This document shows, piece after piece, positions 25,718 through 48,395 of a DNA stretch of 64,000 nucleotides. The stretch spans positions 50,559-114,558 of the forward strand of contig CAVVXU010000004.1 in the NCBI GenBank assembly GCA_963752325.1. Direction: 5' to 3'. The stretch comes from an uncultured Alphaproteobacteria bacterium. GTDB lineage: Bacteria; Pseudomonadota; Alphaproteobacteria; Geminicoccales; Geminicoccaceae. A program made the translations under genes and the position numbers. The number at the start of each line of letters is the position of its first letter. Within the stretch, counting starts at the first letter, position 1. The notes under the pieces are model-generated. The model saw only the letters and a program-made list of their open reading frames with translations. It was not told where the DNA came from and made no database searches.

Positions 25718-26533
25718 TCATGTTTCCACGGCCGACGCGACGTTGAGCAGGAGATCCGTCTGCGTGAGCTTGAGATCCTTCAAATCGAACGACATGGCGT
25801 GGATGATGTTCGCCAGCCGCTTTTGCGTATAGCGCGCATGAGCGACGATCTGGCTTCTGAAGGCGTCCCGATCGCCGGCCTTGATCGCCTCGATGAGATC
25901 GTCGTGCTGACGCACATTGAGCTCGAACTGCTCGTCGTGCACAGCCGGCTGGGTCGATTCGAGCTTGTGGATCAGGACGATCAGGCGGCGCGCATGCCGG
26001 TGGATCGACGTCGCGAACGCATAGATGAACGCATTGTGGATGGTCTCGTACATCCGCAGGTGGAACTCCTGATTCACCGCCGTGATGCCGAGATAATCGC
26101 GCGCCGCGACCAGCGTGCGGTAGCGGCGCTGGATGCTTTCGAGATCGGAGACGAGCGTGGCGTCATCGAAGCGGCACAGCTGGCCCAGAATATCCTCGGC
26201 CAGCTGGTAGGCGCCGATGATCTCGCCCACCTCCCGGAAGTCGAGATTGCGGACAAAGGCGCCGCCGCGGTTGGCGATGAAATTGACGAAGCCCTCGGCG
26301 GAGAGGCGGTTGAGAGCCTCCCGTGCCGGCGTGCGACCCAGCCCGAACTCCTCGATCAGCAGGCTCTCGTCGAGCCTCGATCCCGGCTCGAGCGACAGAT
26401 CGATGATCCGCGAGCGGATCCGATCGACCGCGATGTCGGTTTGCGACGGGGTCCTCGAGCCTCGCTTCGAGCTTCGCGCCTCGCCCTCCGGATCGGTGTC
26501 CGAGATGGCTTCGCTCCGGGCTCTGCGTGACAA
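25718..26533 (-). CDS. GntR-family transcriptional regulator (FadR/FCD subfamily)
   Basis: ..LDESLLIEEFGLGRTPAREALNRLSAEGFV.. is a wHTH, followed by an all-helical FCD-like C-terminal domain. 271 aa with an unusually long, charged N-terminal extension. Confidence 0.9.
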   Translation of the reverse strand: MSRRARSEAISDTDPEGEARSSKRGSRTPSQTDIAVDRIRSRIIDLSLEPGSRLDESLLIEEFGLGRTPAREALNRLSAEGFVNFIANRGGAFVRNLDFREVGEIIGAYQLAEDILGQLCRFDDATLVSDLESIQRRYRTLVAARDYLGITAVNQEFHLRMYETIHNAFIYAFATSIHRHARRLIVLIHKLESTQPAVHDEQFELNVRQHDDLIEAIKAGDRDAFRSQIVAHARYTQKRLANIIHAMSFDLKDLKLTQTDLLLNVASAVET

Positions 26534-36948: not shown

Positions 36949-37959
36949 TCAGAATCCCGTCGCGGGCTCGCGCCAGGAATCGAGCACGCGCAGATAGTTG
37001 GCGCGCTCGAAGGCTGTAGGGTCGGGGACGTGACGCTGGCTCATGGCGCCCTTCATCTGTGCCACCGAGGCATAGCCGCGGCGCTCCATCCAGGCGGCTA
37101 GGCCGTCGCGCAGTGCGCCGAGCCGGGCCGGTCCCTCGCGCAGCAGAGCCGAGGTGGTCATGACCGCATCGGCACCGGAGAGGATGTATTTGACGACCTC
37201 GTCGGGCCCCTGGACGCCTGTGCTGGCGGCGAGCGAGGCCTGGATGCGGCCGTGCAGCACGGCGATCCAGAGAAGCGGCAGCCGAATCTCCGAGGACCTG
37301 CTGAGCTCGAGCGTGGGGGCCACCTCGAGCGCGTCGAGATCGAGGTCCGGCTGATAGAAGCGGTTGAAGAGGACGAGGCCGTTGGCTCCGGCCTCGACCA
37401 GTCGTCGGGCTAGATTGCCGAATGCGCTGTAGAAGGGGCCGAGCTTGACGGCCACCGGGATCGAGACGGCCCGCCTGACGGCCAGGAGAATGTCGAGACA
37501 ACGCTGCTCGACGGCGGCGGACGAGGTGTCGAGGTCGGCCGGGATGTGAAAGATGTTGAGCTCGATGGCGGCGGCCCCGGCCTCCTGCATGAGGGCCGCA
37601 TGCTCGGTCCAGCCTTCGCTCGTGACGCCGTTCAGGCTTGCGATGATGGGAACGCCGGTGCTGTGCGCGGCCTGCCCAAGCAGCTCCAGATAGGGCCCTG
37701 GGCCGATGCGGCTGTCCTCGACGGTTGGGAAGTAGTCGAGGGCCTCGCCGAAGCTCTCGGTGCCAGCGCTGGTCAGCCGCTCGAGAGCGGCGCGCTCCTG
37801 CCGGATCTGCTCCTCGAACAGCGAGAAGAGGACGATGGCGGCAGCCCCGCCATCCTCCAGCCGCCTTATCCCGTCGAGCGTGCGTGAGAGGGGGGAGGCC
37901 GAGGCCACGACAGGATGGGCGAGCGGCAGGCCGAGATAGGTGGTGCGGAGGTCGACCAT
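36949..37959 (-). CDS. dihydroorotate-dehydrogenase-like FMN protein (PyrD/DPD domain IV fold) with no ferredoxin domain
   Basis: ATG37959 with GAGGAG 6 nt upstream, 10 nt after the nifJ stop. ..LGLPLAHPVVASASPLS.., ..IIASLNG.., ..AIELNI.., ..VAVKLGP.., ..LFNRF.., ..STGVQGPDEVVKYILSGADAVMT.. form the class 1 DHODH-like TIM barrel pattern. Confidence 0.85.
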   Translation of the reverse strand: MVDLRTTYLGLPLAHPVVASASPLSRTLDGIRRLEDGGAAAIVLFSLFEEQIRQERAALERLTSAGTESFGEALDYFPTVEDSRIGPGPYLELLGQAAHSTGVPIIASLNGVTSEGWTEHAALMQEAGAAAIELNIFHIPADLDTSSAAVEQRCLDILLAVRRAVSIPVAVKLGPFYSAFGNLARRLVEAGANGLVLFNRFYQPDLDLDALEVAPTLELSRSSEIRLPLLWIAVLHGRIQASLAASTGVQGPDEVVKYILSGADAVMTTSALLREGPARLGALRDGLAAWMERRGYASVAQMKGAMSQRHVPDPTAFERANYLRVLDSWREPATGF

Positions 37960-37969
37960 CGAAGGCTCC

Positions 37970-41574
<3,605 letters not shown>

Positions 41575-41575
<1 letters not shown>

Positions 41576-43206
41576 CAGGCCGGCTCCGGGATCATCTCGA
41601 TGGCGTGGCATGGGCACTGCTCGAAGCAAACGGCGCAGCCGGTGCAGCGGTCATAGTCGTAGCGATAGCGCTTGCCCGGCCCGAGCTTGACCACAGCACC
41701 CTCGGGACAGGCGCCGTAGCAGCCGTCGCACTCGAAGCAGTTGCCGCAGGAAAGGCAGCGCTTGGCCTCGAAGCGGGCCTCCGTCTCGCCGAGCCCGCGC
41801 ACGACCTCGTCGAACGAGGCCGTTCGCCGCGCGGCGTCGAGCTCGTGCTGGCTGCGCTGCGGGGCGTCCGTGAAGTACCAGACATGCAGCTTCTCGAAGC
41901 TGGCGAGGTCGTGGGGCGGCGGCTTCTCGTAGCGACTGCCGCTCAGCCAGGCATCGATGTTGCGGGCGGCTGCCTTGCCGTGACCGACCGCGATCGTGAC
42001 AGTCCGCTCGGCCGGCACCATGTCGCCACCGGCGAAGAGGCCAGACCTGCCGGTCATCATTCCCTCGTCGACGACGACCGTGCCGTCCGTCTTGAACGCC
42101 ACGCCGGGCACCTTGCGCAGAAAGCCCGTGTCGGTGTCCTGGCCCAGTGCCAGGATCAGGGCATCGGCCTCGAGCGTCTCGAAGCGCCCGGTCGGCTGCG
42201 GCCGGCCATGCTCGTCGATCGTCATGACCTCGACCGTGAAATGCGTCTCGTCGATCGCCTTGATCGTCCGCAGCCAGTGGATCTTGACACCTTCCTCGAC
42301 CGCCTCGTCGGCCTCGAAGCCGTGCGCAGGCATGTGCTCGCGGTCGCGGCGGTAGATGATGAGCGCCTCCTCTGCGCCGAGCCGCTTGGCGACGCGGGCG
42401 GCGTCCATGGCCGTGTTGCCGCCTCCATAGATCGCGACCCTGCGCCCCAGCCGCGGTGCTTCGCCGGACTCCACGCTCTCGAGGAAGCTCACGGCATCGA
42501 GGATGCGCCCGGCGTCGCGGGCCGGGATCTCGGCACGCTTGGCGAGGTGCGCTCCCACCGCGACGAAGGCGGCATCGAAGCGACCCTCGCCGATCGCGGC
42601 CTCCAGATCCTCGACCTTGTGATCGAGGACGATCCCCACGCCGAGAGCCGCTATCCGGCTGATCTCGGCATCGAGCACGGCACGGGGCAGGCGGTAGGCC
42701 GGGATGCCGAAATGGAGCATGCCGCCCGCCATCGGCCCGGCGTCGCGGATCTCGACCGTGTGGCCGTGGCGGCGGAGATGATAGGCGGCCGAGAGGCCCG
42801 AGGGCCCAGCACCCACGACGAGAACGCGCTTGCCGGTCTCCGCTTCCGGCGCCGGCAGGCTCCAGCCGCGCTCGAGCGCAAGGTCGCCCAGGAACCGCTC
42901 GACCGCGTGGATGCTGACGGCGCTGTCGAGCTCGCCGCGGTTACAGGCGCTCTCGCAGGGATGATAGCAGACACGGCCGTGAATGGCGGGAAAGGGGTTG
43001 TCCTGGACGAGCCGGCGCCAAGCCGTCTCGAAGTCGCCGCCCTGGGCGGCGTCGAGCCAGCTTTGGATATTCTCGCCGGCCGGGCAGGCGTGATTGCAGG
43101 GCGGCAGGAGGTCGACATAAAGCGGGCGTTGCGTGCGAAACGGACCCGTCCGCCGCTCGCGTGCGAGATCGGGCTCGACTGTCAGATCATTGGGTCTCGC
43201 CGGCAC
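41575..43206 (-). CDS. GltD-like NAD(P)H:FAD oxidoreductase with a C-terminal 2x[4Fe-4S] ferredoxin domain
   Basis: 543 aa. The N-terminal cluster region ..LLPPCNHACPAGENIQSW..CYHPCESAC.. resembles the glutamate synthase small subunit. Dinucleotide folds VLVVGAGPSGLSAA and VAIYGGGNTAMD. C-terminal CLSCGNCFECDGCYGACP ... CTGCAVCFEQCPCHAI. Confidence 0.9.
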
Positions 43207-43259
43207 AGCGTCACTCCCTGGGCGTCGGGAGATCGAGCGGCAGAACCACGCCGCATGCC

Positions 43260-43273
43260 TTGATCGAGATCAA
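43260..43273. promoter_or_regulatory. perfect FNR/FixK-type (Crp-Fnr family) binding box
   Basis: TTGAT-CGAG-ATCAA matches the TTGAT-N4-ATCAA consensus at all 10 positions. Its centre is about 60 bp upstream of the GltD-like ATG (43206, minus strand) and about 150 bp upstream of the hyhB GTG (43416, plus strand). Confidence 0.55.
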
Positions 43274-43415
43274 GCACCGCCTGGATCATGGAATGCTAGA
43301 GAGGGTGGCCAACAGCCCTGGCTGGGTCCAGTCTCAGGGTATTGGCGTTGAGATCAGGTGCGGCGATGTCCACGGAACGACGCGCGAGGGACAGGCGATT
43401 GGCGGGGCAGGGGGC

Positions 43416-44550
43416 GTGCTGACTGGCGACCTTCTGGTCGTCCAGCGGGAGGGCCTGCAGCACCTTCTCGATGCGCTCGCACAGCAGGGCTACGAGGTCC
43501 TGGGCCCGACCGTGCGCGATGGCGCCATCGTCTATGACGAGATCGCAGGGGCTGGCCGATCTGCCGGAGGGTTGGACCGACGAGCACGCGCCGGGCCACT
43601 ACAGGCTCGTTCCGCGCGAGGACCGGGCGCTTTTCGGCTATGTGGTGGGCCCGCATGCCTGGAAGCGGTTCCTCCACCCGCCTGTGCTGCAGCTGTGGCA
43701 GGCCGAGCGTGGTGCCGATGGCCTCGCCTTCAGCGGGCCGGCGCCGCGCGAGCGTCCTTATGCCTTCATCGGCGTGCGTGCCTGCGAGCTGCGGGCCATC
43801 GCGGTTCAGGACCGTGTCTTTCTCGAAGGCGCTCATGTGGACACCCACTACCGGGACCGGCGGGCCGGCGCGTTTCTGGTCGCTGTGAACTGCGGCGAGG
43901 CGCGGGGCACCTGCTTTTGTGTGTCGATGGGCACCGGCCCAAAGGCTGACGTCGGCTTCGATCTGGCGCTCACCGAGCTCGACCCGACGGGCGATCACCG
44001 CTTTCTGCTTGAGGTGGGCAGCGAGCGGGGGGCCGAGGTCGCGCAAGCGCTGCCGCATCGGCCGGCCAATGAGGCGGACCGCAAGGCGGCTGCTGCGGCA
44101 ACCGCCCATGCCGTGGCCGGCATGGGCCGCCAGATGCCAGCCGAGGGCGTGCCGGAGCTGCTGGCGCGTAACCTCGAGCATCCGCGCTGGGACGAGGTGG
44201 CCGAGCGCTGCCTCACCTGCGGCAATTGCACGATGGTGTGCCCGACCTGCTTTTGCACGACGGTCGAGGAGGATCTCGACCTGACGGGGAAGGAGGCAGG
44301 CCGGACGCGCAAGTGGCTGTCCTGCTTCGGGCTGGATTTCTCCTACATCCACGGCGGCAGCGTGCGGTCCTCGCCGCGATCCCGCTACCGCCAGTGGATG
44401 ACCCACAAGCTCTCGACCTGGGTCGACCAGTTCGGCACGTCGGGCTGTGTGGGCTGCGGTCGCTGCATCACCTGGTGCCCCGTCGGCATCGACATCACCG
44501 AGGAGGTGCGCGCGATTGCCGCCACCGAGCAAAGCGGGGACAAGCCGTGA
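43416..44550 (+). CDS. hyhB: group 3b [NiFe]-hydrogenase beta subunit (AsrA-like 4Fe-4S protein), apparent frameshift in a G4 run at 43548-43551
   Basis: The N-terminus [44 protein letters not shown] is in the frame of ORF 43161. It continues as [19 protein letters not shown]...[10 protein letters not shown]...[16 protein letters not shown]...[12 protein letters not shown] in ORF 43471-44550. The GTG43416 start is tentative. Confidence 0.8.
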
Positions 44551-45008
44551 AGAGCCTCGAGGAGATCATCGCCGCGCACGAGTTCTTCCGCGGTCTGGAT
44601 CCGGCATTCTGTGAGCTGATCGCCGGCTGCGGCCGGAACGTGGTCTTCAACGCGGGAGACTATCTCTTTCGGGAAGGTGATCCAGCGGACCAGTTCTACC
44701 TGATCCGCCATGGCAAGGTCGCCTTCGAGGTCGCCGTGCCCGGTCGCGGGACCATGCGCTTCCTCACGCTGGAGGAGGGGGAGATCGCCGGAATCTCCTG
44801 GCTCGTGCCGCCCTATCGCTGGGCCTACGATGCCAAGGCCGTCGAGCTGACCCGTGCCATCTCCCTCGATGCGAAGTGCCTGCGCGGCAAATGCGAGGCC
44901 GACCATCATCTGGGCTATGAGCTGATGAAGCGGTTCGTGCCGGAGCTGATGCGCCGCCTGCACGCGACCCGCCTGCAGATGTTCGATGTCTATGGCCCGG
45001 CCGCCTGA
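44547..45008 (+). CDS. stand-alone cyclic-nucleotide-binding (CAP effector) domain protein, no DNA-binding domain
   Basis: GTG44547 overlaps the hyhB stop (GTGA). 153 aa. ..[59 protein letters not shown].. is the cNMP-binding beta-roll pattern. The protein ends before any HTH could fit. Confidence 0.85.
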
Positions 45009-45856
45009 GACCCTGTCCGGACGGTCGCCGGTGATCGACCCGATGCTGCCGCTCAGCGCCGTGGTGCGCCGTCGCCGCCGCGAGCTCGCCGACACCTGGA
45101 CCCTCGAGCTCGAGGTGGAGAACGGCACGCCCGGATCCTTCCGGCCCGGGCAGTTCAACATGCTGTGGGCCTTCGGTGTGGGCGAGGCCGCGATCAGCAT
45201 CAGCGGTGATCCGGCCAAGGACGGCCCTCTCATCCACACCATTCGCGATGTCGGCAAGGTCTCGGGTGCCCTGGCCAGGATGCGGCCGGGCGACCGGATC
45301 GGGATGCGGGGGCCCTTCGGCAGCGCGTGGCCAGTCGAGGAGGCCTACGGTCGGGACGTGGTGGTCGTGGCGGGCGGCCTCGGCCTGGCCCCGCTCCGGC
45401 CGGCGCTCTATCGGCTCTTTGCCGAGCGCGAGCGCTACGGCCGCATCGCGCTCCTCTACGGCACGCGGAGCCCACGCGAGATCCTCTATCCGGCCGAGCT
45501 CGAGCGATGGCGGCGACGGCTCGACGTGGCCGTGGAGGTGACGGTGGACCATGCCGGCACCGACTGGCGTGGCCATGTGGGTGTCGTGACCAAGCTCATC
45601 CCACGGTCGAGCTTCGATCCGGCGCAGACGGTGGCGCTGGTCTGCGGCCCCGAGGTCATGATGCGCTTCGCCGCGAGCGCGCTCCGCGAGCGCGGGCGTG
45701 GCCGACGAGGCGATCCATCTCTCGCTGGAGCGGCACATGAAGTGCGCGCTCGGCCATTGCGGCCGCTGCCAGCTCGGCCCCGTCCTCGCCTGCAGGGATG
45801 GCCCGGTCGTCTCGTACGACCGGGTGCGGCAGATCCTGGCGCTGAAGGAGATCTGA
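44986..45856 (+). CDS. hyhG: group 3b [NiFe]-hydrogenase gamma subunit (FAD/NAD(P)-binding, AsrB-like), apparent 1-nt insertion at GGG 45694-45696
   Basis: ..[23 protein letters not shown].., ..[14 protein letters not shown].., ..LLYGTRSP.. run in the frame of 44986 up to ..ALRERG. The sequence continues as [37 protein letters not shown]...KEI* in the next frame ([2Fe-2S] Cys motif), with stop TGA 45854-45856. Confidence 0.85.
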
Positions 45857-45857
45857 G

Positions 45858-46643
45858 CTGGCAACGACCGCACGAAAGCCCAAGCTCGCCGTCTGGAAGT
45901 TTTCTTCCTGCGATGGCTGCCAGCTCAGCCTCCTGGACTGCGAGGACGAGCTTCTGGCCGTGGCGGGAGCGGTCGAGATCGCCTACTTCCTCGAGGCGAC
46001 ACGCGCCGAGGTGGCCGGGCCCTATGACCTCTCGCTGGTCGAGGGCTCGATCACGACGCCCCACGATGCGGGTCGCATCCTCGACATCCGCAAGCGATCG
46101 AAGCGGCTCGTCACGATCGGAGCCTGCGCCACCGCCGGCGGCATCCAAGCGCTCCGCAACTTCCGGGACGTCAGCGAGTTCGTCCGCATCGTCTACGCCC
46201 GACCCGACTATATCGAGACGCTGGCCACCTCGACACCGATCGCCGCCCACGTGCCGGTCGACTTCGAGCTGCACGGCTGCCCGATCAACAAGCGCCAGCT
46301 GCTCGAGGTGCTGAGCGCCTTTCTCCTCTATGACCGCAAGCCGGCCGTTCCTGGTCACAGCGTGTGCATGGACTGCAAGCTGAAAGGCAACGCCTGCGTG
46401 ATGGTGGCCAAGGGCACGCCATGCCTCGGCCCGGTGACGCGGAGCGGCTGCGGTGCGCTGTGCCCGTCCTATGATCGGGGCTGCTATGGCTGCTTCGGCC
46501 CGATGGAGAGCCCCAACACCCAGGCCTTGAGCGCCTGGCTCAGGAGCCTCGGCGTGGACGAGGCGACGCTGCAGCGGCTCTACGCGACCTTCAATGTCGG
46601 CGCCGAGGCGTTCCATGCGGAGGCTGCACGGCATGGCCAGTAA
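45858..46643 (+). CDS. hyhS: group 3b [NiFe]-hydrogenase small (delta) subunit; only a CTG is available as start
   Basis: (L)[32 protein letters not shown]...[10 protein letters not shown]...HGCPI...[12 protein letters not shown]...[29 protein letters not shown] (45845-45850) lies 7 nt before CTG45858. The first canonical start (GTG45960) would delete the conserved N-terminal Cys motif. Confidence 0.8.
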
Positions 46644-47922
46644 GACCATCAAGGTCGGCCAGCTCGCCCGCGTCGAGGGCGAGGGGGCGCTCAAGGTCAC
46701 GATCAAGAATGGCGCGGTAAAGCTGGCTGAATTCAACATCTTCGAGCCGCCGCGCTTCTTCGAGGCGTTCCTGCGGGGCCGCGCCTATACCGAGGTGCCG
46801 GACATCACAGCCCGGATCTGCGGCATCTGCCCTGTGGCCTACCAGATGAGCGCCGTCCACGCGATCGAGGCGGCGCTGGGGGTGAAGGTCAGCGGGCCGC
46901 TCCGCGAGCTGAGACGGCTGCTTTACTGCGGCGAGTGGATCGAGAGCCACACGCTCCACGTCTACATGCTGCATGCGCCCGATTTTCTGGGCTACCAGAG
47001 CGCCATCGATCTGGCGCGCGACCATGGCGACATCGTCAAGCGCGGGCTCGCGCTCAAGAAAACCGGGAACGAGCTGCTGGCGCTGGTCGGCGGCCGCGAG
47101 GTCCATCCGATCAACGTCCGGGTCGGCGGCGTCTACAAGGCGCCCACGCGCCGCGAGCTGGCTGAGATGCGGGGGCCGCTCGAGCGGGCCCGGGACGCCG
47201 CCATCGCCACGGTGCGCTGGGTGGCGGGCTTCGACTTTCCCGATTGTGAGCGCGACTACGAGCTTGTCTCGCTCAGCCATCCTGATGAGTATCCCTTCAA
47301 CGAGGGGCGGATTGTCTCGAGCCGAGGGCTCGACATCGCGCCGGCGGAGTATCCGGCGCATTTCGAGGAGGTGCATGTGCCGCACTCGACGGCGCTGCAC
47401 AGCCGACTCAAGGCCCGTGGCAACTATTTCGTCGGGCCGCTGGCGCGCTACGCGCTCAACTTCGAGAAGCTCCCGGCGCCGGCACAGCAGGCGGCGCGCG
47501 AGGCCGGGCTCGGTACGGTCTGCCGCAATCCCTTTCAGAGCATCATCGTGCGCGCGGTCGAGATCGTCTTCGCCTGCGAGGAGGCGCTGCGCATCATCGA
47601 GAGCTACGTCGAGCCGGAAGCGCCCTTCCTCCAGGTGACGCCGGCCGCTGGCCTCGGCCATGCCGCGACGGAGGCGCCGCGCGGCATGCTCTATCACCGC
47701 TATCGCCTCGCCGCCGACGGCAGCATCGAGGATGCCGTGATCATCCCGCCGACGTCGCAGAACCAGGCCACCATCGAGGAGGATCTTGTCACCTTCATCA
47801 ATGGCTGGACCGACCTCCCCGACGAGGACCTGCGCTGGCGCTGCGAGCAGACGGTCAGGAACTACGACCCTTGCATCTCCTGCGCCACGCACTTCCTGCG
47901 GCTCGAGGTCGATCGCGCCTGA
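46633..47922 (+). CDS. hyhL: group 3b [NiFe]-hydrogenase large (alpha) subunit
   Basis: ATG46633 overlaps the hyhS stop. ARVEGEGAL, the N-terminal Ni-binding motif [10 protein letters not shown], and the C-terminal DPCISCATH followed by a 9-aa extension (FLRLEVDRA) of the kind removed by the maturation protease. Confidence 0.95.
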
Positions 47923-47924
47923 AG

Positions 47925-48395
47925 GTGGGAGCCCTGGGCCGGAGGCTGGTCATCGGCATCGGCAATCCCGATCGCGGCGACGACGGCGTCGGACGTGCGG
48001 TCATCCACAAGCTGCACGGGCGCGTTCCGGCCGACGTCACCCTGCTGGAGCAAGAAGGAGAGGCTGCGACGCTCGTCGGCTGGCTCGAGGGCGCGGCAAC
48101 GGCGCTCATCATCGACGCGGCGATCACGGGGGCTGCGCCCGGCAGCGTGACGCGGCTCGACGCCAATACCGGACCGGTGCCGGTGGGGCTGGGCTCCATG
48201 TCCTCGCACGGCCTCGGCGTCGCTCAGGCGATCGAGCTTGCCCGCATCCTGGGCGTGCTGCCGCCATGCTGCATCGTGCTGGCGATCGAGGCCGCGTCGT
48301 TCGAGCCGGGTGCCACGCTCTCGCCCGCCGTCGAGGCCGCAGCTGAGGATGCGGCGGCTATGATCCTCAGCGAGCTCGCGGCCTCGCCAGGCTGA
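47925..48395 (+). CDS. hydrogenase maturation endopeptidase (HycI/HoxW family)
   Basis: GTG47925 lies 3 nt after the hyhL stop. LVIGIGNPDRGDDGVG is the family signature GxGNxxxxDDGxG. ..SSHGLG.. is present. 156 aa. Confidence 0.85.
   Translation: MGALGRRLVIGIGNPDRGDDGVGRAVIHKLHGRVPADVTLLEQEGEAATLVGWLEGAATALIIDAAITGAAPGSVTRLDANTGPVPVGLGSMSSHGLGVAQAIELARILGVLPPCCIVLAIEAASFEPGATLSPAVEAAAEDAAAMILSELAASPG

Follow-up and report, generated by a model that had tools for sequence, protein, structure and literature searches.

We analyzed a 64,000-nt stretch of contig CAVVXU010000004.1 from an uncultured alphaproteobacterium (hereafter, the window), in which a 14-nt palindrome of the FNR/FixK type is located between two divergent operons. 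The operon on the minus strand comprises the genes for a GltD-like flavoprotein, a pyruvate:ferredoxin oxidoreductase (PFOR) and a dihydroorotate dehydrogenase-like (DHODH-like) protein, and the hyh operon on the plus strand encodes the subunits of a group 3b [NiFe]-hydrogenase together with a cyclic nucleotide-binding protein and a maturation protease (Table 1). Within the 209-bp intergenic gap (43207-43415), the palindrome TTGATCGAGATCAA occupies positions 43260-43273 (read from the window, the same letters are ttgatcgagatcaa), is centered at 43266.5 and matches the consensus TTGAT-N4-ATCAA at all ten specified positions. From its center, the start codon of the GltD-like gene is 60.5 nt away and that of hyhB 149.5 nt. 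A first-pass annotation made from the sequence alone had reported this exact match as the sole such site noticed in the window and had placed it in a 209-bp gap, about 60 and 150 bp from the starts of two divergent operons; the match and its uniqueness were borne out by counting, the distances by measurement and the identities of the flanking genes by family profiles. The hyhB start that had been predicted, the GTG at 43416, also agrees with the N-termini of the homologues in nine relatives. An alternative in-frame start further upstream, the ATG at 43293, was rejected because the homologue N-termini align from GTG 43416 and because the substitutions among strains upstream of 43416 are not biased toward third positions.

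Rarity and conservation of the palindrome

The perfect palindrome occurs once in the window, compared with 0.01 copies expected from dinucleotide-preserving shuffles, and the relaxed core TTGA-N6-TCAA twice; the other copy of this core, at 25770-25783 (TTGAGATCCTTCAA), is inside a minus-strand open reading frame (ORF) and probably due to chance. The host genome (G000), a metagenome-assembled genome (MAG) of 6.3 Mb with a GC content of 68.5% and a completeness of 87%, contains six perfect boxes, against approximately 0.3 estimated from the base composition and an average of 0.66 copies for 160 composition-matched 5-N4-5 palindromes. Five of the six are non-coding, compared with a non-coding genome fraction of 25%, and so are 24 of the 41 genomic copies of the relaxed core (binomial p = 4e-6); those control palindromes that are abundant, e.g., ATCAT-N4-ATGAT, are mostly found in coding sequence. 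The half-sites at 43260-43273 are TTGAT and ATCAA, and the CRP consensus TGTGA-N6-TCACA is not matched there. In searches against Rfam, the window yielded at gathering thresholds just two tRNAs, both elsewhere, and the spacer yielded no RNA family at E <= 1.

We examined 60 relatives and found orthologues of the GltD-like gene (identity of 69% or higher) in several genera of the same family; six of these relatives have a box with 0-1 mismatches located 59.5-99.5 nt upstream of the GltD-like start codon (Table 1). These six relatives represent four genera including the window's own, and in three genera the spacing between box and start codon is held tightly at 59.5-62.5 nt. In a multiple alignment, the box and a few bases after it form the sole conserved island, and the spacers are otherwise unalignable. 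Based on how often boxes having at most one mismatch occur in the genome, the Poisson P of the six GltD-side boxes is ~2e-13. The possibility that the palindrome is a functionless chance occurrence is effectively refuted by this conservation at orthologous positions over four genera, and only 0.01 copies were expected in the window; the point in favor of chance is the comparison of close strains, in which a substitution-free box is not significant alone (P = 0.15). Judged from its conservation together with the hyhB boxes, the encoded regulators and the boxed low-oxygen genes described below, the palindrome is almost certainly a functional FNR/FixK anaerobox. In 80 named genomes (mostly Gammaproteobacteria, Bacteroidota and others; 64-75% protein identity), matches with up to two mismatches were scattered on the GltD side, so there is no general conservation of the box at these distant homologous loci outside the window's own family. 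The GltD-like gene of another genome of the same genus (G002, locus L094) is 67% identical, is separated by hardly any spacer from the preceding gene on the same strand and has no box; this genome lacks hyhB, and its GltD-like operon is probably a different paralogue or a xenologue.

At the strain level, we compared the spacer with that of G001 and of contigs from a hot spring (X2), a marsh (X6) and a bioreactor (X7), which are ~93-99% identical and all keep the divergent arrangement. Substitutions affect 26 of the 209 spacer positions, none of which falls within 43256-43281, and the stretch 43293-43308 is also invariant. Two variable positions are on the PFOR side (43207-43259) and 24 on the hyh side, an asymmetry indicating that the short promoter and leader of the PFOR operon are under stronger constraint. 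Strains with 95-99% identity are also represented in soil, hot-spring and sludge samples.

Among the relatives compared, hyh is divergent from PFOR in the window's own genus only; in G003, G006, G035, G011, G014 and others, hyhB is on another contig or many kilobases away from the PFOR genes. Although unlinked to PFOR, the hyhB genes of six relatives are preceded by FNR-like boxes of their own (Table 1), an enrichment with P = 2e-6, or 5e-4 if four independent events are assumed for these boxes. The distance of 149.5 nt between box and hyhB in the window is within the range of the five distal boxes (-112 to -166). Since relatives have separate boxes before both operons, each operon appears to bear an FNR box independently in this family, and the genus of the window shares one box between the two. 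A second hyh promoter region with a single box between divergent genes exists in genus g10: in G035 (locus L114, 1-664, minus strand), the box TTGATCGAGTGCAA is situated between hyhB and a divergent PfkB-family sugar kinase gene (PF00294), and in G011 (L118), from the same genus, the upstream start of the divergent gene is the same.

Table 1 Genes, predicted promoter elements and boxes at the locus, elsewhere in the host genome and in related genomes. Plain positions refer to the window, C numbers to contigs of the host genome and negative values to the distance from the start codon.
Feature	Position	Strand	Sequence	Basis or remark
DHODH-like protein, third gene of the PFOR operon	36949..37989	-		PRK07565, 445 bits (cut-off 303)
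Pyruvate:ferredoxin (flavodoxin) oxidoreductase, NifJ/PFOR type, single-chain	37970..41629	-		TIGR02176, 1770 bits (cut-off 911)
GltD-like Fe-S flavoprotein, NAD(P)-binding, with a 2x[4Fe-4S] domain at the C-terminus; PFOR operon, first gene	41575..43206	-		PRK12771, 784 bits (cut-off 516)
Predicted -10-like hexamer, PFOR promoter	43232..43237	-	CTCGAT	Read from the sequence
Predicted -10-like hexamer, hyh promoter	43296..43301	+	CTAGAG	Preceded by TG; likeness to hexamers after other boxes
hyhB, Fe-S beta subunit of group 3b [NiFe]-hydrogenase	43416..44550	+		Frame broken by an extra C at 43546
Cyclic-nucleotide-binding-domain-only protein, 153 aa, within the hyh operon	44547..45008	+		PF00027, 44.8 bits
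hyhG, FAD/NAD-binding gamma subunit	44986..45856	+		NAD_binding_1; frame broken by an extra C at 45691
hyhS, small/delta subunit	45960..46643	+		ShyD/HydD-like, Oxidored_q6; listed from the first canonical start codon, true start probably further upstream
hyhL, large/alpha subunit, sulfhydrogenase type	46594..47922	+		NiFeSe_Hases; ShyA-like, 282 bits
Hydrogenase maturation protease (HycI type), final hyh operon gene	47871..48395	+		PF01750
ccoN box	C10:773148		TTGACTTAGATCAA	
fixG box	C7:95951		TTGAGCCAGATCAA	
hemN box	C7:235764		TTGATCGCGATCAT	
FixT-like receiver gene box	C10:780614		TTGACCTGGATCAA	Top strand; TTGATCCAGGTCAA in gene direction
Box of the fnrL-like gene itself	C7:39154		TTGACTTGGGTCAA	Top strand; TTGACCCAAGTCAA in gene direction
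GltD-side box, G001 (same genus)	-59.5			Identical to the window
GltD-side box, G003, G006 and G032	-61.5 to -62.5		TTGATCTCGCTCAA	
GltD-side box, G011	-74.5		TTGACTTCGATCAA	
GltD-side box, G035	-99.5		TTGATTTTGATCAA	
hyhB box, G003	-166.5		TTGATCGAGATCAA	14-mer identical to the window
hyhB box, G035 and G011	-117.5 and -112.5		TTGATCGAGTGCAA	
hyhB box, G022 and G019	-116.5 and -136.5		TTGACGTGGATCAG	
hyhB box, G005	-63.5			Two mismatches

Candidate regulators and the low-oxygen regulon

A scan of the genome for Crp/Fnr-type helix-turn-helix (HTH) proteins returned at least 11 paralogues, only two of which have an E--SR recognition helix; both align with FNR (5cvr) and FixK2 (4i2o). The first, which is FnrL-like (C7:38379-39140), combines an ETVSR helix with the cysteine motif C-X2-C-X7-C at residues 30, 33 and 41 and with a central Cys that, in the alignment, corresponds to Cys122, a cluster ligand in Aliivibrio FNR. 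The second, which is FixK-like (C10:782946-783638), has an ETISR helix without a Cys cluster and aligns with FixK2 (4i2o) at 195 bits. Its gene is adjoined by that of a FixL-like PAS histidine kinase (456 bits against a cut-off of 850, with an ORF that is possibly truncated by assembly frameshifts) and by a 129-aa receiver-only FixJ/FixT-like gene. A CRP-like paralogue (C5:55072-55617) has the helix RENVNR, the sole RE---R helix seen, and the helices of the remaining paralogues are unrelated. A 254-aa Crp/Fnr-family regulator with an S--H-NR-type helix in place of E--SR is present in four near-identical copies (C3:122221-122985, C5:230823-231587, C5:1184932-1185696 and C10:17899-18663), which are presumably carried on a repeated mobile element.

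A genome-wide scan for boxes outlined a putative regulon in the host genome: boxes with 0-1 mismatches precede ccoN, fixG, hemN, the FixT-like receiver gene and the fnrL-like gene itself (Table 1), and boxes were also found before the genes for a CBS-BON protein, a DUF3141 protein and a Zn-dependent alcohol dehydrogenase. Compared with published regulons (PMC7888657, PMC2908626), this set of genes is the classic alphaproteobacterial low-oxygen regulon. The half-sites differ among the boxes, being TTGAC for ccoN, the FixT-like and the fnrL-like gene and TTGAT for PFOR/hyh, the alcohol dehydrogenase gene, the DUF3141 gene and a receiver gene, a split that may correspond to FixK and FnrL. Perfect TTGAC-N4-GTCAA palindromes (C7:189512, C11:133533, C22:258223 and C5:764068) were dropped as evidence for the regulon as their neighbors, encoding an FAD oxidoreductase, an RTX-like repeat protein, a sulfatase, an amidohydrolase and RibF, are unrelated and have no obvious link to oxygen; they possibly constitute a second class of sites.

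The box could in principle be read by a Crp/Fnr regulator that senses a signal other than oxygen, such as a cyclic nucleotide (cNMP), nitric oxide through a Dnr/NnrR-type protein, or redox state. The at least 11 paralogues in an incompletely recovered genome speak for such a reader, as do the binding sites of FNR, FixK and DNR, which are indistinguishable by sequence (PMC2908626), and the cNMP-binding-only protein encoded in the hyh operon. However, the E--SR helix that reads TTGAT was seen only in the FnrL-like and FixK-like proteins, the boxed genes ccoN, fixG and hemN are the classic low-oxygen set, and the site lacks the CRP consensus, so that we consider a non-oxygen reader improbable. 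In particular, a cNMP-responsive regulator is unlikely because the RE---R helix of the CRP-like paralogue reads TGTGA, not TTGAT. The first-pass annotation had left open an oxygen-responsive or a cNMP-responsive regulator; the former is supported by the E--SR regulators and the boxes before ccoN, fixG and hemN, and the latter is disfavored by the helix of the CRP-like paralogue. We attempted to assign the oxygen-responsive site to FnrL or FixK by presence and absence and dropped this approach, as all 16 genomes have at least one homologue. With a homologue in every relative examined and with indistinguishable FNR, FixK and DNR sites, the regulator acting at the box may be FnrL-like or FixK-like, or both may act there.

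Predicted promoters and the reach of the box

For the PFOR operon, a start site is predicted at 43225, which would place the box at -41.5 and give a 19-nt leader holding the ribosome-binding site, the sequence AGGGAG at 43214-43219 (-8 to -13 relative to the GTG start codon of the GltD-like gene). This class II geometry is consistent with the spacing of 59.5-62.5 nt that is tightly conserved in three genera. For the hyh operon, a start site predicted at approximately 43308 would likewise put the box at -41.5, with a leader of ~107 nt. The two -10-like hexamers are 22 nt away from the box edge on their respective sides, and the predicted start sites are 83 bp apart. CTA-type hexamers also occur 20-23 nt after other boxes, namely, CATAGC for ccoN, CTAGAT for a receiver gene, CTAAAC for DUF3141 and CTAAGG for DUF2189. 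By eye, no match to a sigma-54 promoter (GG-N10-GC) was found in 43274-43415.

The sign of the regulation could also be the opposite, with the box overlapping or following the start site of one or both operons and acting as a repressor site, comparable to the proximal anaerobox of fnrN; in Rhizobium, transcription is repressed by anaeroboxes that are placed at -2 or follow the start site (PMC7888657). We consider this highly unlikely, as the 60.5 nt to the GltD-like start codon, together with the position of the ribosome-binding site, provide precisely the space that a class II promoter and a leader of 19 nt require, no recognizable promoter exists upstream of the box on either side, and the targets are anaerobic-type enzymes for which induction at low oxygen is expected. 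Class II activation of the GltD-like/PFOR/DHODH-like operon from the box is, by its predicted geometry and its conservation, very likely.

Another possibility, which we regard as rather unlikely but not negligible, is that a genuine FNR/FixK site serves the GltD-like/PFOR operon only, that the hyh promoter is elsewhere in the 142-nt stretch between box and hyhB, and that their adjacency is an accident of a genus-specific rearrangement. The tight spacing to the GltD-like start in three genera fits this possibility, as do the conservation of the PFOR side among strains with nearly all variable positions on the other side, the presence in G006 of a GltD-side box without a box at hyhB, and the lack of a box at the hyp genes. 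It is countered by the boxes that unlinked hyhB genes have of their own, at -112 to -166 in G003, G035, G011, G022 and G019 and at -63.5 in G005, and by the hexamer CTAGAG, which has the spacing of a class II promoter, does not vary between the strains and is similar to hexamers that follow other boxes. Activation of the hyh operon by the same dimer that would activate the PFOR operon is, on these comparisons, fairly likely. The proposal of the first-pass annotation that one regulator could switch on both arms is accordingly sustained for the PFOR arm by conservation among orthologues and, less securely, for the hyh arm by the boxes of unlinked relatives.

Several observations weigh against an FNR/FixK dimer acting on both operons. 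With up to two mismatches, no box was detected upstream of the GltD-like gene in G014 or upstream of hyhB in G006 and G014, so that not every relative shows the association, and with up to one mismatch, none upstream of the hypF/C/D/E/A/B-like maturation cluster (C7:873004-879039), which is unlinked to hyh. The hyh side of the spacer, with 24 of the 26 variable positions, is poorly conserved, and the finding that close strains have no substitution in the 14-nt box does not reach significance alone. The best family match of the FnrL-like protein is FnrL, at 174.8 bits against an equivalog cut-off of 300 (NF045989), for which reason we refer to it as an FNR-family, FnrL-like protein and not as an FnrL equivalog; the FixK-like protein, at 215 bits, is also below the NCBIfam equivalog cut-off of 300. 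A scan of 43100-43520 found neither a consensus sigma-70 promoter nor a terminator on either side, and the -10-like hexamers match CTATAT at four of six positions; the lack of a sigma-70 consensus is expected of activator-dependent promoters, yet the -10 assignments are weak. Among the RNA runs, the metatranscriptome X11 contained only short conserved coding fragments, and the spacer was present in no RNA run. Finally, hyhB and hyhG each contain a 1-nt insertion in this assembly. The extra C in hyhB is absent from G001 and the runs X1, X2 and X3, and that in hyhG is absent from G001 and the X2 strain. In the same MAG, ccoN (C10:773148-774740) is also split, with the called frame holding just the C-terminal half (COX1 profile positions 273-436), and the DUF3141 gene at C10:333501 is likewise split, with an out-of-frame tail. 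Most likely, the frame breaks are consensus errors of this MAG and not signs of pseudogenes or of a dead hydrogenase arm. The small cNMP-binding protein of the hyh operon, which is made up solely of a CAP effector domain, has no HTH domain, and its gene is located between hyhB and hyhG, overlapping both.

Considering all of this, we regard it as probable that the palindrome is an FNR/FixK operator that activates the PFOR operon and, fairly probably, the hyh operon as well; the in silico support is strong for the PFOR arm and moderate for the hyh arm. We infer the start sites, the direction and sign of the regulation and its dependence on oxygen. When oxygen becomes scarce, the active regulator would occupy the box as a dimer; it may be of the FnrL type, with cysteines as [4Fe-4S] ligands, or of the FixK type, the latter presumably under the control of the FixL-like sensor kinase. 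From a position near -41.5, the bound dimer would act as a class II activator and recruit RNA polymerase to the weak promoter of the PFOR operon, and the same dimer may also activate the mirror-image promoter of the operon consisting of hyhB, the cNMP-domain gene, hyhG, hyhS, hyhL and the protease gene. In this way, the oxidation of pyruvate would be turned on at the same time as the evolution of H2 linked to NAD(P)H: PFOR and its GltD-like partner would transfer electrons taken from pyruvate to NAD(P)H, and the hydrogenase of group 3b would free them as H2. A more specific version can be offered only tentatively: one dimer, at -41.5 to two back-to-back class II promoters, would induce the group 3b hydrogenase along with the PFOR module that forms NAD(P)H, and the shared box would stem from the fusion of two ancestral promoters. 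An aerobic alphaproteobacterium would thereby have gained a hypoxia-triggered route from pyruvate to H2, and this genus would have fused two ancestrally separate promoters, each with its own anaerobox, that are still separate in sister genera such as that of G003, in which the identical 14-mer precedes hyhB.

Comparison with known regulatory systems

The closest counterparts of the box are the anaeroboxes of the rhizobial fixNOQP and fixGHIS operons, where the site bound by FixK and FnrN, TTGAT-N4-ATCAA, directly precedes the -35 position (PMC7888657; FixK2-DNA complex 4i2o). The motif is the same, it is read by dimeric regulators with an E--SR helix, the placement immediately upstream of -35 is shared to the extent that the predicted start sites hold, and boxes precede ccoN, fixG, hemN and a regulator gene in the genome studied here as well. 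The targets are different, however: the rhizobial anaeroboxes serve a cbb3 oxidase, whereas the box described here is associated with PFOR and group 3b hydrogenase operons, and the regulators of this genome score below the equivalog cut-offs. The FnrL regulon of Rhodobacter sphaeroides and the alphaproteobacterial FNR-FixK-DNR regulons (PMC2908626) consist of the same conserved core (cco, hemN) with niche-specific extensions, and some FnrL sites fall between divergent operons. Hydrogenase and pyruvate are mentioned nowhere in the main text of that study, so that PFOR and hyh would be lineage-specific additions to the extended regulon.

A link between [NiFe]-hydrogenase genes and micro-oxic conditions through an FNR-type box is known from another alphaproteobacterium, Rhizobium leguminosarum, in which an FnrN-type promoter drives hypBFCDEX, according to a passage in PMC3534401 citing Hernando et al. 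1995. As described there, these are maturation genes of an uptake hydrogenase, whereas the targets proposed here are structural genes, those of a cytosolic, NAD(P)-linked hydrogenase of group 3b, and no box precedes the hyp cluster of this genome. That a single CRP dimer can activate divergent promoters has been described for Escherichia coli (a passage in PMC3105977 citing El-Robh and Busby 2002). Here too, one dimer of a Crp-family protein would act in both directions, from a position predicted at -41.5 to both promoters, but the regulator in the E. coli case covered by that passage is CRP with cAMP, whereas here it would be FNR/FixK, with bidirectionality predicted from geometry and comparative genomics. 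As predicted, the locus is a clear case from nature in which a single Crp/Fnr-family site would be arranged symmetrically with respect to two divergent promoters, and sister genomes display the unfused state.

In terms of the enzyme, the nearest comparison is Mycobacterium smegmatis, in which hypoxia induces Hyh, a group 3b hydrogenase, via DosR (bioRxiv 10.1101/2023.09.11.557286; 10.64898/2026.10.24.761498). The enzyme class is the same and so is the predicted physiology, that is, an aerobe that evolves H2 from NAD(P)H once oxygen runs out. The wiring is different, as M. smegmatis uses the two-component system DosS/T-DosR with a different operator, whereas the candidate switch described here is a Crp/Fnr-type dimer that would also be common to PFOR. 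Hypoxia-induced fermentative H2 production by aerobes has so far been documented for mycobacteria, under DosR. With the PFOR operon and the group 3b (Hyh-type) hydrogenase operon as probable members of the FNR/FixK low-oxygen regulon in an uncultured alphaproteobacterial family, our analysis suggests that Proteobacteria wire this process to the classical FNR/FixK system instead of DosR. The regulatory principle is textbook knowledge; new are some of the target genes, the symmetric layout and an informative evolutionary history.

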